This document shows, piece by piece, positions 27,951 through 36,562 of a stretch of DNA of 64,000 bases. The DNA comes from Muribaculaceae bacterium. GTDB taxonomy: Bacteria > Bacteroidota > Bacteroidia > Bacteroidales > Muribaculaceae. A program made the position numbers and the translations under genes. Below the pieces are notes generated by a model. That model made no database searches and was not told the origin of the DNA. It saw only the letters and a program-made list of their open reading frames with translations. The stretch lies in assembly GCA_029070945.1 (NCBI GenBank), contig JAIEBK010000051.1, forward strand, positions 19,121 to 83,120, written 5' to 3'. The number at the start of each line of letters is the position of its first letter. The stretch's first letter is position 1.

Positions 27951-30035
27951 ATGAAAAAGATTTTCTTAATTCCAGCATTGGTATGCGCTATGCTTAGCCC
28001 TATCACGGCTGCTGCGCAGGATGACGCAGATGAACCCGTACAGAAACGGGATTACAATTTTAAGTCAGCTAAACCGCTGACACAGATAGAATCGCTTTAC
28101 TCGGCGATAATGGCAGCCACACCCAAGGGTGTGCAGAATACACTCGGACTCGAGCTTATAGAAAGCAAGGACAGTATCCGGAGAATGGCACTCAACCCGA
28201 CCGGCATTAACGTCGCCGTAGTCAAGAAAGACAAGAAGGGCCGCTACTATCTCGAGACTATCACAACCGACGGAGATGCTGAAAAGATCATGAGTTTTGA
28301 CTCCAAGCATCTCGGAATTCCTTATGCAGCGGCTTTCACTCCTGACGCGCGTCAGCTTGCGGTTGCCACCGAAAAGGGCACATACCTGTTCGAGACAAAA
28401 AAATTCAAGCCGGTCGGAGAAGCTCCGGCGTTCACGAACCATCCTGACATGATCGTCTTCAGTCCGAATCAGTACTTTCTCGCGGCTGCCGGCGACAAGA
28501 AAGTGGAAGTGATGAACTTCGAAGATAAGACCATGCGACGCACGCTGAATCCCGGCGAAGCCGTCACTGACGTGGTCTTCTCAAAATCAAGCGATGATAT
28601 GGCCGTGCTTACAGCAGACGGTATGGTTGAGATATACGACACCCGTTCCTTCAACGTGCGTCTCATGATCGAAGACCTCGACAACGGTATTGCCTGCGAC
28701 TTCAACGCTGACGGTAAATACCTCGCGGTGGTGGCCGACAACGACAAAGTGACCGTCGTCAACCTCCTCAAGCCTGAAGACAGAATCATTTTCGATGTCC
28801 CGGAGGCTACTATCAGCGATGTCCTTTTCATTGCTGACGCCAACGATAATCCGGTGCTCGCAGCCTCTACCGAAAAAGGAATCAGCGCCCGCCGCATGAA
28901 GCTTGAGCCTTATTACGCCAAGCTTGTCAGCGACGAAGTGGACATGAAGATGAGCGAGTGGCTCAAGAAAATGCCAAACGAGACCATGGAAGAATATCAG
29001 CTTCGTGTCAACGACGAGACCCGCGCCAAGCAGCGCCGCCTATTCGAAGACGAGATCTCCACAAGCCTTGCCGGAAACCTCACAGCTATGTCGACCGTAA
29101 GCCTCGGCCAGTATGACGCCGACAACGAAGTGCTTGCCGTGAACTTCGACAACATGCCTACCATCTTCCTCCCGATGCCACGCGAAGACCTCGGAGCCAT
29201 CAACTCAGCCAATGACCTTACAATCAGTGACCAGCAGTATGGTCTTCTCGGCGACGACACATTCGAGCTCATATACGCTAAGTTCACCAACAACAAGACC
29301 GGGGCCGAATACATCTACGACAATATCAACCGTAAGCCCATGGAGTTCATGAACAACGACAATATCGTCTCGATCGAGCTTGTACAGCAACAGATGATGG
29401 AGGAGGTGAAACTCGAGGAACTCAAGGAGCAGGTGATGCAGGAGGCTAAAAAGGATAATATCATTTCCGACCACACACAGATCGCCGTTAACTCGGAGGT
29501 GATTCCTGACTATGACGCCAACGGCAATAAGATCCTGAACTACAACGTCAGCTTCCAGTATCAGGTAGATCCGGAATTCTCCGCTCAGGAAGACTTCGCT
29601 CCCGGAAAGTATCGGGCTGAGCAGTCAGGCGCCGCATCCTCGATGCTCAATATCGTCAAGAATGCTTTTGAAGGAGACTTCGCCAACTATGTGAAGCAGG
29701 GCAAGCGTCTCAACGTTAAGATATCAGGAACAGCCGACTCCTCCCCTATCCGAAGCACTATCGCATATGACGGTGCATACGGCGACATCGAAAACGAGCC
29801 TATCTATCAGGACAATAAGATGAGCGCTATCACAGTTACCCAGAAAGACGGCATAAAGAGCAACGAGCAACTCGCTTTCCTGCGTGCCTACGGCGTGAAG
29901 GAATTTCTTGACAGCAATGTGGCCGGCCTCAAGGACATGGATACACGCTACACCTACAATATCGGCGTAGCTGAAGGAAAGGGTTCAGAATTCCGTCGCA
30001 TTACGGTTGAATTCACCTTCGTCGACGCATTCTAA
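27951..30035 (+). CDS. Exported WD40-like beta-propeller protein with an unnamed central domain and a degenerate OmpA-like C-terminal domain
   Basis: Signal peptide ...ITAAA|QD; repeats FTPDARQLA, FSPNQYFLA, FSKSSDDMA, FNADGKYLA; C-terminal GTAD...NEQLAFLRA..V..FL...FRRITV. Confidence 0.8.
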   Translation: MKKIFLIPALVCAMLSPITAAAQDDADEPVQKRDYNFKSAKPLTQIESLYSAIMAATPKGVQNTLGLELIESKDSIRRMALNPTGINVAVVKKDKKGRYYLETITTDGDAEKIMSFDSKHLGIPYAAAFTPDARQLAVATEKGTYLFETKKFKPVGEAPAFTNHPDMIVFSPNQYFLAAAGDKKVEVMNFEDKTMRRTLNPGEAVTDVVFSKSSDDMAVLTADGMVEIYDTRSFNVRLMIEDLDNGIACDFNADGKYLAVVADNDKVTVVNLLKPEDRIIFDVPEATISDVLFIADANDNPVLAASTEKGISARRMKLEPYYAKLVSDEVDMKMSEWLKKMPNETMEEYQLRVNDETRAKQRRLFEDEISTSLAGNLTAMSTVSLGQYDADNEVLAVNFDNMPTIFLPMPREDLGAINSANDLTISDQQYGLLGDDTFELIYAKFTNNKTGAEYIYDNINRKPMEFMNNDNIVSIELVQQQMMEEVKLEELKEQVMQEAKKDNIISDHTQIAVNSEVIPDYDANGNKILNYNVSFQYQVDPEFSAQEDFAPGKYRAEQSGAASSMLNIVKNAFEGDFANYVKQGKRLNVKISGTADSSPIRSTIAYDGAYGDIENEPIYQDNKMSAITVTQKDGIKSNEQLAFLRAYGVKEFLDSNVAGLKDMDTRYTYNIGVAEGKGSEFRRITVEFTFVDAF

Positions 30036-30057
30036 AGCACTAAGGCTAAAGACTTAA

Positions 30058-30087
30058 TTCCGGGTCGGACTGATCCCCGGCCCGGAA
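30058..30087 (+). other. Intercistronic stem-loop without U-tract
   Basis: TTCCGGGTCGG...CCGGCCCGGAA between the first two operon genes. Confidence 0.55.
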
Positions 30088-30147
30088 ACAAAATATATTA
30101 TGATTTAGTAGACTCAACAACTACCTGACTCAACAATACATTCTGAA

Positions 30148-34429: not shown

Positions 34430-34437
34430 CGTCTCGA

Positions 34438-34634
34438 TAAGTAGCTGGTCAAATTAAACGTATATTATCCGCGCCGACGATTCCGAGGCGATTTGGCAGC
34501 GGAGCGATGGAACGATGCGGGCATCGTGACCGAGCGACAAAGCCGAAGTGGCCGGAATCGGCAAGTGGAGAATATACGAGATCATCTACTTTCAGGAGTT
34601 ATTATTGTATCGTTTTAAATTGAACAGCTACTTA
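34438..34634. mobile_element. MITE-like element (~197 bp) with terminal inverted repeats and TA flanks
   Basis: Left ATAAGTAGCTGGTCAAATTAAA vs reverse complement of right ATAAGTAGCTGTTCAATTTAAA (20/22); nested inner inverted repeats; no transposase. Confidence 0.75.
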
Positions 34635-34651
34635 TATAAAGGATTTATAAT

Positions 34652-36562
34652 ATGCGTAAATGCATCACACTTATTTCAGGATGCATGCTCTTCGGGGGGA
34701 CTGTCGCTCTGTCGCAGTCTCCCCTTGAGGAATACAACAGATTCCGGCAGCAGATCCTGAGCGACTACGACAATTTCAAGTCGCGCATTCTCGAACACTA
34801 CGGTGACTTTCTCAATGGAGAGTGGCACGAATTCGAGCCCCTATGGGAGGAAGAAAGTCCTTATACGGAGCCGAAACCGGAGACTCTCCCGGAGATTCCT
34901 GTAGTTCCGGAACCGGAACCTCTGCCTGAAGTGGCGAAGCTTCCCGACCCGAAGTTCACCGATTCAAGCCTCTCCGGAATTCTTGTTGCCGCCGCTCCAA
35001 AGGGTAATCTGGCTCAGGGCAGTATCACCGACTTCGATTTCGGTTCGATGAAGATTGATGTCCCGTCGGCAGGCGGTTCGGCTATGCCAGGCACTTCCGC
35101 ATCTGCTCCAGGCCGGGAGATGGCACAGGGCTCTATCAAAGATTACGACTATTCGTCCCGTAAGATCAATTCGGGAGGAATAGGGGGAGGATCCCTGCCC
35201 AAGACTATGGCCCAAAGTCCGATAGGAGCCTCGCTTGCTATGTCCGAGGTTGCCGGAAAGAGCAGCTATGAACTCGCTGTCCTCCGCCTTCCCGATCCCG
35301 GATTCGCATTCGGTAACTTCCCCGGCCAGACGGCTGCTCCGAGTCCGGGAGAGTCGGGTATAGTCAATATTGACATGTCTTCACGCCGCATGAGTCCCGA
35401 AGATCTCCAGCGTGCTGTTGAAGAAAGCGGCTATGCTACGGTTGAAACTTTCACCGTACCGGAAAACCAGAATAATTATATGTTTGACTTCTACGGCATG
35501 CAGGCGTTCATTCCCGAGATCGACTTCAATATCGCGAAGTCGCTGAGCGGGCCGGAGGAGACCGGTGCGCATTGGAAGAAGATGGCTGATCAGGAAGGTG
35601 GACTCGAGACATCGCGCCAGCTTTTCGGCCTCGCACAGCAGCTCGGTCTAAACGGATACCTCACCTATCGTCTGGCTGAAGCGTATGTCAACGATAGGTT
35701 TAAGGATTCCGATCAGGCCGCACGCACGTCGGCGGTTCACTTCCTGCTATCAAACATGGGCTACGACGCACGTCTCATCAAGCTCGATGATATATTTACC
35801 GTAATGATGCCTTTCGACCAGGAGGTTGTCTACGCTACCATGTCGCAGACCATAGACGGGCGTAAATACACAATTCTGTTCCCCGAAGGCTTCGAACCTC
35901 CTAAAGGAAAGTCAATGCGACTGATGACTTGCAATCTTCCGTCTAACGCACTTGGAAAGACTTCCGACCTGCGTCTGACAGGACTAAGCCTACCGATGAA
36001 GGCCAAGAATTTCAACCTCACCAACGGCAGAATATCTCTCAAGGGAGAGGTCAACGAAAATATTCAGAAGCTTCTGCATCATTATCCGCAGATGCCTACG
36101 GGCGACTTCGCATCTTCATGGGTTGACAGCCGTCTGCGTGAGGACATTGTGGAGCAACTCAAGTCGCAGCTTGCAGGCATGAGCGACCGCGAGGCTGTCA
36201 ATACCCTCATGGCTCTGTGCCACAATGGATTCAACTATTCCACCGACCAGGATTTCCATGGATTTGAGAAGCCTTACTTCCTTGAGGAGAACTTCATATA
36301 CGATAAGAACGACTGCGAGGACCGCGCGATTTTCTTCTCCTATCTGCTTTGGAACGCCCTCGGACTCCCCTGCCAGCTTGTGCAGTATCCCGGGCATGAA
36401 AGCGCTACCGTAGCGGTAGACGAGGACATCGCCGGATACTTCTACAATACGGACGGCATGAAATACTACAGCGCCGATCCCACCTACATCGGAAGTACAA
36501 TCGGTATGGTGATGAAGGCCTTCCGCTCTGCCTCCCCTACAGTCGACAAGCAATACCGCTAA
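34652..36562 (+). CDS. Exported protein with C-terminal transglutaminase-like (LapG/BTLCP-like) Cys-His-Asp domain
   Basis: Signal peptide; NDCEDRAIFF (Cys 36314), YPGH (His 36395), ADPTY (Asp 36476); Pro/Gly/Ser-rich linker. Confidence 0.75.
   Translation: MRKCITLISGCMLFGGTVALSQSPLEEYNRFRQQILSDYDNFKSRILEHYGDFLNGEWHEFEPLWEEESPYTEPKPETLPEIPVVPEPEPLPEVAKLPDPKFTDSSLSGILVAAAPKGNLAQGSITDFDFGSMKIDVPSAGGSAMPGTSASAPGREMAQGSIKDYDYSSRKINSGGIGGGSLPKTMAQSPIGASLAMSEVAGKSSYELAVLRLPDPGFAFGNFPGQTAAPSPGESGIVNIDMSSRRMSPEDLQRAVEESGYATVETFTVPENQNNYMFDFYGMQAFIPEIDFNIAKSLSGPEETGAHWKKMADQEGGLETSRQLFGLAQQLGLNGYLTYRLAEAYVNDRFKDSDQAARTSAVHFLLSNMGYDARLIKLDDIFTVMMPFDQEVVYATMSQTIDGRKYTILFPEGFEPPKGKSMRLMTCNLPSNALGKTSDLRLTGLSLPMKAKNFNLTNGRISLKGEVNENIQKLLHHYPQMPTGDFASSWVDSRLREDIVEQLKSQLAGMSDREAVNTLMALCHNGFNYSTDQDFHGFEKPYFLEENFIYDKNDCEDRAIFFSYLLWNALGLPCQLVQYPGHESATVAVDEDIAGYFYNTDGMKYYSADPTYIGSTIGMVMKAFRSASPTVDKQYR

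Follow-up and report, generated by a model that had tools for sequence, protein, structure and literature searches.

The 64,000-nucleotide stretch of a Muribaculaceae genome analysed here (the window) carries five co-oriented genes, named A to E, between a promoter and a strong 3' hairpin. All of these elements, listed in an original prediction made from the letters alone, were located in the sequence, and together they constitute a real and intact operon whose transcription as a single unit is predicted. The operon encodes what is apparently an undescribed, conserved and intact envelope protease system, built from known folds and one unnamed domain in a new arrangement, with a predicted function. 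B is a caspase-like protease and E a transglutaminase-like enzyme. Genes A, B and C form an invariant core, and D and E a separable pair that is found by itself in other members of the order as well. The features that define the operon, its genes being co-oriented open reading frames (ORFs), are as follows.

27883-27913, plus strand: Bacteroidetes housekeeping-type promoter, TTG at 27883, 20 nucleotides, then TAAATTTG at 27906-27913
27951-30035, plus strand: gene A, 694 amino acids
30148-32796, plus strand: gene B, 882 amino acids
32769-33698, plus strand: gene C, 309 amino acids
33809-34429, plus strand: gene D, 206 amino acids
34652-36562, plus strand: gene E, 636 amino acids
36595-36639, plus strand: 20-bp terminator-like hairpin, likely bidirectional and common to a convergent small ORF at 36680-36961

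Named homologues were mostly from Muribaculaceae. A was present in 39 of 200 other genomes of the family (about a fifth), spread over 15 of 29 genera, and all 44 full-length A matches among these 200 genomes were used as anchors for a comparison of loci. The caspase gene and C were found in all 44 loci, D in 34, E in 33, and all five genes in 32, several contigs ending early. The genes thus co-occur in other genomes, as the original prediction had proposed to check, but its picture of five genes as one fixed unit did not hold: B and C accompany A throughout, D-E is detachable, and either a CHASE2 gene with its partner or barrel genes can be added. CHASE2 genes were seen in 27 of the 44 loci and small genes for immunoglobulin-like (Ig) plus barrel proteins, recognised by Pfam and a C-terminal signature, in eight, with no locus carrying both. 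In most family loci the CHASE2 gene and an unnamed exported partner precede A, while in the window's own genome the pair lies on another contig (C85:163-2177); two loci (L224 and L227) have D-E-CHASE2 adjoining A-B-C, though inverted or reordered. Four helices are predicted in the CHASE2 protein, with 16-54 residues past the last one. A FecR label for the gene beside CHASE2 was an impression from sequence that scans did not support. The barrel subtype (L219, L220, L221, L222, L225, L228, L266, L269) has one to four tandem paralogous outer-membrane barrels with an N-terminal Ig-like domain, mostly between the caspase gene and C and never with CHASE2.

Anchoring on E gave the other half of the picture. 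Among 61 relatives E was present in 32, and among 251 genomes sampled from the order in 60 (about a quarter), its own genome included in both counts; 1,847 clusters at 50% identity match it at 1e-30. The 77 top-scoring E loci of named records, among which close kin are over-represented and which include Bacteroides, Alistipes and Rikenellaceae records, comprised 36 with all five genes, 33 in the window's order. A sample of 57 E loci from the order (drawn from 65 non-own matches, six fetched earlier and two short ones being excluded) had D in 18, a remoter D-like gene in six, the caspase gene in 10, C in eight and A in none. D-E is treated as separable from the core, with all five genes in 32 of the 44 A loci and A in none of the 57 sampled E loci. 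Nevertheless, D-E recurs beside a caspase gene and C in distant families, with shuffled gene orders. The exported genes around E in the order sample vary from locus to locus (PEGA, FGE-sulfatase, Lcl_C, fimbrillin, BACON, LRR_5, WG, LPP20, Sel1 and barrels).

Several variant loci are recorded here. Named strains with D-C-E or D-to-E variants, potentially convenient as model organisms, are Bacteroides salyersiae (L140), Segatella copri (L119) and Leyella lascolaii (L109). Five loci from distant families (L189, L192, L193, L197, L198) have ECF-sigma-like genes, a label from sequence only, and zinc-finger anti-sigma-like genes directly 5' of E or D. At L107:5476-8093 and L117:3567-7960, B and C are separated by a barrel gene and by genes for fimbrillin (Mfa_like_1), in one case with Lcl_C. 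The window's own genome holds an E paralogue with CsgG-like and probable LPP20/D-like genes (C168:778-5270), a C-like gene with an LRR-caspase (C76:1-3145), LPP20-like and PEGA-like genes (C120:30199-40945) and fimbrillin-like genes (C129:14033-22117).

B consists of a signal peptide, TPR repeats, a domain here called X (434-590) and a C14 caspase-like domain. It matches PF00656 (Peptidase_C14) with 74.5 bits against a cut-off of 21.4, and Pfam also recognises the TPRs. The catalytic dyad H714/C764 is intact and the His and Cys motifs were found in 67 of 67 homologues, which bears out the TPR protein with an intact His-Cys caspase described originally. Two Asp residues of the acidic pocket, D657 and D762, are invariant in 20 of 20 sequences, as is R770, and R783 is also conserved. 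MALT1 and metacaspases are the closest solved sequences. PMC6426788 ties two pocket Asp residues to basic P1 specificity, and by motif position D657 and D762 appear equivalent to D95 and D211 of TbMC2. Because of these two residues, B would cleave after Arg or Lys and is likely arginine-specific.

Domain X, unnamed and of ~140 residues, is present in both A and B, and the two copies align in hhalign at 99.1% (E-value 7.6e-19). A fold search with the A model, in which X was folded only together with the OmpA domain, returned no clear match for X, the matches listed being those to the OmpA domain. The atlas leads, DUF4852 and DUF6066, both score below 0.8. Residues 430-592 of B resemble standalone proteins of 170-185 amino acids in the ESM Atlas, one cluster of which is partly assigned to phages (score 0.92, a lead only). 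A tally of 86 distinct caspases gave 49 with X and a neighbouring A, 20 with neither, eight with X but no A, six with A but no X and three with an OmpA fusion; a quick tree places 39 of 46 X-bearing caspases in one clade. All seven of the 44 A loci in which the caspase lacks X carry barrels. An obligatory, death-domain-like X-X pairing of A and B was considered on E-anchored loci, of which 45 had X in both, 19 in neither and one was discordant, two genes cut by contig edges having been dropped. It was ruled out, as the pattern comes mostly from that one clade and is broken by A-anchored and distant loci. X is better read as a caspase-associated domain that is supplied in cis or in trans and is not always needed. 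The original inventory, whose named domains largely hold, had missed X in both proteins, as well as a miniature inverted-repeat transposable element (MITE) between D and E.

A comprises a signal peptide, a WD40 propeller (~66-316) with Pfam matches, domain X (320-460), a long helix and a MotB/OmpA-like fold (~475-694). Residues 318-694 were modelled with a predicted local distance difference test (pLDDT) score of 86. The C-terminal fold of this model matched MotB in Foldseek (probability 1.0, E-value 2e-3) and in VIA (Z 10.3, root-mean-square deviation (rmsd) 4.8, 166 residues aligned), where OmpA-like domains took the top 28 rows and ZorB appeared with Z 7.3. Four residues, D596, R645, R682 and R683, are invariant in 40 of 40 homologues and stand at what I take to be the positions that bind the stem peptide in OmpA/MotB domains. 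PF00691, the Pfam model for OmpA, does not match A, and A has no hydrophobic segment past its N-terminus. A would accordingly be described as a divergent OmpA/MotB member by fold only, with predicted peptidoglycan binding. The original label of WD40 plus OmpA-like thus stands by Pfam for the propeller and by fold for the anchor, though not by the PF00691 profile, and the suggested peptidoglycan tether has a plausible counterpart in this modelled fold with its invariant Asp and Arg residues.

In the order sample, the parts of A were found only in pieces, in 9 of 250 other genomes, and X was matched in 8 of 301 across the phylum, mostly weakly. These pieces include natural fusions. An OmpA-like domain is joined to the caspase in three genomes (L206, L217, L218), in one of which (L217) a WG-X gene stands directly before OmpA-caspase, D and C; a single WD40-X-caspase chain occurs in L212, where the patterns used did not find the catalytic motifs. 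Since distant families fuse these pieces, propeller, X, anchor and caspase look like reshuffled parts of one unit. The proposal that A holds B likewise derives from the fusion, in other families, of an OmpA-like domain, or of propeller plus X, to the caspase.

C has a signal peptide, an N-terminal domain weakly similar to D (hhalign 74.9%) and a C-terminal DUF4384-like domain. The latter label, also given originally, comes only through homologues, 13 of 17 of which match PF14326 (best 1.7e-6), and not from the window protein itself, which has no Pfam match. D carries a signal peptide, is non-lipidated, belongs to no named family and is the most regular neighbour of E. The LPP20-like label proposed for it was not confirmed: none of 22 homologues matches PF02169 in Pfam, contig C137 gave no match at an E-value of 1 or below, hhalign against Pfam-LPP20 neighbours reached 2.4%, and an atlas LPP20 cluster (score 0.88, 24% of members) is a lead only. 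Searches of PDB sequences with C, D and E gave nothing significant.

E is composed of a signal peptide, a helical N-terminal segment, a variable Pro/Ser-rich linker and a transglutaminase-like catalytic domain. Its catalytic residues C555, H582 and D609 are kept in 104, 105 and 105 of 105 homologues, respectively. The C-terminal domain was modelled with a pLDDT of 96.7; LapG was its best match in Foldseek (E-value 2.9e-3), and TglA, BDI_1141 and LapG were tied in VIA at Z 9.2-9.7 (TglA: Z 9.7, rmsd 4.2, 144 aligned). PF04473 and PF01841 matched weakly in 7 and 5 of 37 homologues, and PF06035 (BTLCP/LapG) had no match in the own genome at an E-value of 1 or below and none on E or the scanned homologues. 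Fold and intact Cys-His-Asp triad agree with the transglutaminase-like enzyme first described, and suggest a member of that superfamily for which protease, isopeptidase and cross-linker are all candidate activities. The linker varies from 29 to 205 amino acids across homologues and contains an internal duplication in the window protein, at residues 120 and 157. E is tandemly duplicated in L072, L073, L074 and L141. Long forms of ~700-950 amino acids occur in L051, L052, L058 and many of L148-L204; in the two scanned, the C-terminal extension had no Pfam match.

Signal-peptide-like N-termini were scored by my own hydropathy rule, under which all five window proteins were positive, in agreement with the original prediction, as were 41 of 42 homologues of A, 36 of 39 of B, 56 of 64 of C, 95 of 96 of D and 148 of 152 of E. 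Among cytoplasmic controls, 8 of 47 (17%) scored signal-like, as against 88-99% of the homologues. Lipobox-like motifs are rare among homologues and absent from the five window proteins, and neither NCBIfam nor Pfam matched a type IX sorting domain on any of the five. As export is judged by the hydropathy rule, a periplasmic location of A to E is inferred.

The genes are spaced at 112 (A-B), -28 (B-C), 110 (C-D) and 222 bp (D-E). The promoter follows the pattern TTG-N20-TAAATTTG, which I take to be the Bacteroidetes housekeeping consensus; it is one of nine matches on both strands of the window and is not listed by a generic sigma-70 scan. Its -7 box is separated by only 37 nucleotides from the ATG of A, which speaks against a large leader RNA, and in seven loci of the closest relatives (duplicates included) it lies 44-47 nucleotides 5' of A. 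An Rfam scan gave a sub-threshold match on the terminator hairpin and no other. A pullulanase gene (by Pfam) flanks the operon on one side, and the small convergent ORF followed by what is presumably typA, named from sequence, on the other; this position is fixed in close relatives. The GC content of the operon is 48-53%, compared with 48.3% for the genome. A recent horizontal island is disfavoured because of this genome-like GC content and the stable flanks. E has one weak plasmid match. Two further features lie within the operon.

30059-30088 (ends approximate), plus strand: strong hairpin, rich in G+C, in the A-B spacer (-27.9 kcal/mol in RNAfold, no U run after it), possibly an element of mRNA stability or processing
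34438-34634, no strand assigned: MITE-like insertion between D and E, 197 bp, with ~24-bp terminal inverted repeats

The MITE is genome-specific and outside the conserved system. The own genome has five more copies that are nearly full-length (87-96% identical), besides many partial copies, on C29, C69, C73, C128, C168 and at many contig ends, and the D-E spacer was without it in the seven closest loci inspected. On C168, another copy with unchanged orientation lies directly 5' of the E paralogue.

The reading that I favour, at a little under an even chance, is that the five predicted periplasmic proteins work together as a protease switch tethered to peptidoglycan: A would anchor and scaffold B, C would be a constant partner and the D-E pair would supply a second enzyme as output. 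Such a switch would be akin to periplasmic proteolysis that is scaffolded or gated by a receptor, yet made from new components. The reading builds on the observed gene order, domain content, intact catalytic residues, OmpA-like fold with its invariant residues and modular co-occurrence. All five would be exported by Sec and soluble in the periplasm, where A would bind peptidoglycan and hold B. Swappable repeat modules (WD40, TPR, LRR, WG, CARDB) may bind a trigger, for example damaged or foreign envelope material, and trigger binding would cluster B, which would activate by cleavage at the conserved arginines after the catalytic Cys. Active B might then cleave the variable N-terminal arm of E, a membrane partner, or both, this partner being either the tail-less CHASE2 protein of the inner membrane or the small Ig-plus-barrel proteins of the outer membrane. 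E, in turn, would cut or cross-link envelope proteins. That CHASE2 and barrels never occur together is as expected of alternative membrane partners, and the housekeeping promoter and genome-like GC content fit a standing, pre-armed system.

Several findings weigh against this protease switch. A relay from B to E cannot be general, because 12 of the 44 A loci, some of them truncated at contig ends, lack D-E, and across the order most E loci have no caspase gene. X-X pairing is not a required link, given the seven A loci with an X-less caspase and the eight X-bearing caspases without A. A conserved arginine site was looked for in the linker of E and none was found. With a tail so short, no cytoplasmic output is evident for the CHASE2 protein, whose gene in the own genome, moreover, is on another contig. 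Finally, the locus counts overstate independence, since most loci are close kin and X-bearing caspases fall largely in one clade.

A bolder version, which taken as a whole I consider unlikely, would have the anchored WD40 adaptor and the TPR-caspase act as a periplasmic platform for caspase activation that detects envelope breach by phage puncture, antimicrobial peptides or rival toxins, with a cleavage relay to the transglutaminase-like effector and interchangeable inner- or outer-membrane partners. If true, this would be an apoptosome-like logic outside the cytoplasm, and would give a major gut family a bacterial immune or envelope-signalling system of a new class.

Among the rival explanations, constitutive maturation or release of surface structures, in which adhesins and outer-membrane proteins would be handled without any sensing, survives best and is rather unlikely. 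B would be specific for basic residues, as are the pilin-maturing proteases of Bacteroidales, and E would be a LapG-like enzyme for processing or cross-linking. LapG cleaves a surface adhesin, according to PMC4359373, and it is the best Foldseek match of E; yet E ties equally with folds other than LapG, and PF06035 has no match in the genome. Genes for fimbrillin (Mfa_like_1), Lcl_C, FGE-sulfatase, BACON, LRR_5, PEGA and barrels do occur in variant loci, those for fimbrillin lying between B and C in L107 and L117, and a housekeeping promoter suits constitutive maturation. However, the operon in the window has no adhesin, pilin or barrel gene, and neither do most A loci (barrels in 8 of 44); a receptor of LapD type or a gene for type I secretion was found neither in the operon nor among 151 scanned neighbour proteins, a set that does not include every neighbour.

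It is distinctly unlikely that the operon serves envelope defence against phages or toxins, with a peptidoglycan-anchored sensor of MotB/ZorB-like fold triggering the caspase so that the cell arrests or dies. The patchy distribution over genomes and genera, the swappable repeat modules on the caspase, the ZorB fold match of A and a weak PADLOC caspase match (2e-6) speak for such a role. Against these stand the fixed pullulanase-typA position in close relatives, the genome-like GC content and the lack in the operon of gasdermin, EACC1, ZorA or another effector; in addition, the caspase domain was unmatched in 50,697 phage records, where the only match covers the TPRs. That A-B-C and D-E are unrelated modules under one promoter, with proteases for general periplasmic quality control or peptide scavenging, is improbable: A-B-C does occur without D-E and E without a caspase, the MITE between D and E is tolerated and paralogous pieces are scattered in the own genome (C76, C168, C120, C85), but repeated chance linkage poorly explains the return of D-E beside caspase and C in distant families, the N-terminus of C and D are weakly homologous, and recurrent neighbours include no peptide-transport genes.

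The operon offers a compact and intact test case: it has two catalytic cysteines and a predicted anchor to the cell wall, its parts occur in natural fusions, and its two kinds of membrane partner exclude each other. Its elucidation would show the targets of periplasmic caspases, define X, and may reveal a route of envelope signalling or defence in gut Bacteroidales.

Compared with known systems, the nearest relatives of B are prokaryotic caspase homologues (orthocaspases and metacaspases, PF00656), which in the available passages of PMC3501461 and PMC6426788 share its His-Cys dyad, acidic pocket and TPR or WD40 companions. The gene set, domain X, the separate propeller-X-OmpA scaffold and the link to a transglutaminase-like enzyme and CHASE2 are not described in those passages. 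The first of these sources, a survey from 2012, already counted a probable signal peptide in 46 sequences and OmpA domains in 14 operons. In the open-access literature, neither a system-level account nor a function of such exported homologues was found, and nor was a description of the five-gene system, most subscription journals lying outside the search; the passages seen of PMC5499826, PMC7159879 and PMC13271334 do not describe it. The operon did not classify with Lap, Zorya or the cytoplasmic caspase defences, which, with no published account found, agrees with the original view of it as a candidate for an undescribed system.

LapG/LapD (BTLCP, PF06035; PMC4359373) likewise pairs a periplasmic transglutaminase-fold enzyme with a Cys-His-Asp triad with a nearby inner-membrane protein that has a periplasmic sensor domain. 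In contrast to LapG, E has no PF06035 match, has extra N-terminal domains and is joined by a caspase; a tail-less CHASE2 protein takes the place of a GGDEF-EAL receptor as membrane partner, and no type I adhesin was seen. Caspase defence systems (gasdermin-associated, EACC1-caspase, CRISPR TPR-CHAT) resemble the operon in combining a repeat module with a caspase fold. To my knowledge, the characterised bacterial caspase-like systems act in the cytoplasm, whereas the five products here look exported, and the operon has no gasdermin, EACC1, Cas or ZorA partner. Effector models of these systems in Pfam, NCBIfam and PADLOC had no match in it, and its matches to NF047832 (56.7 bits, cut-off 140) and to the PADLOC caspase model were sub-threshold.

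The anchor of A resembles ZorB/MotB and in this respect recalls Zorya, but A lacks a transmembrane helix and PADLOC found no Zorya match in the operon. In CtpA-LbcA and Prc-NlpI, scaffolds of TPR type position a periplasmic protease at the cell wall and regulate it. These are serine tail-specific proteases on lipoprotein adaptors, whereas B is a clan CD cysteine protease with TPRs of its own and a tether that is predicted to run through the OmpA-like domain of A.

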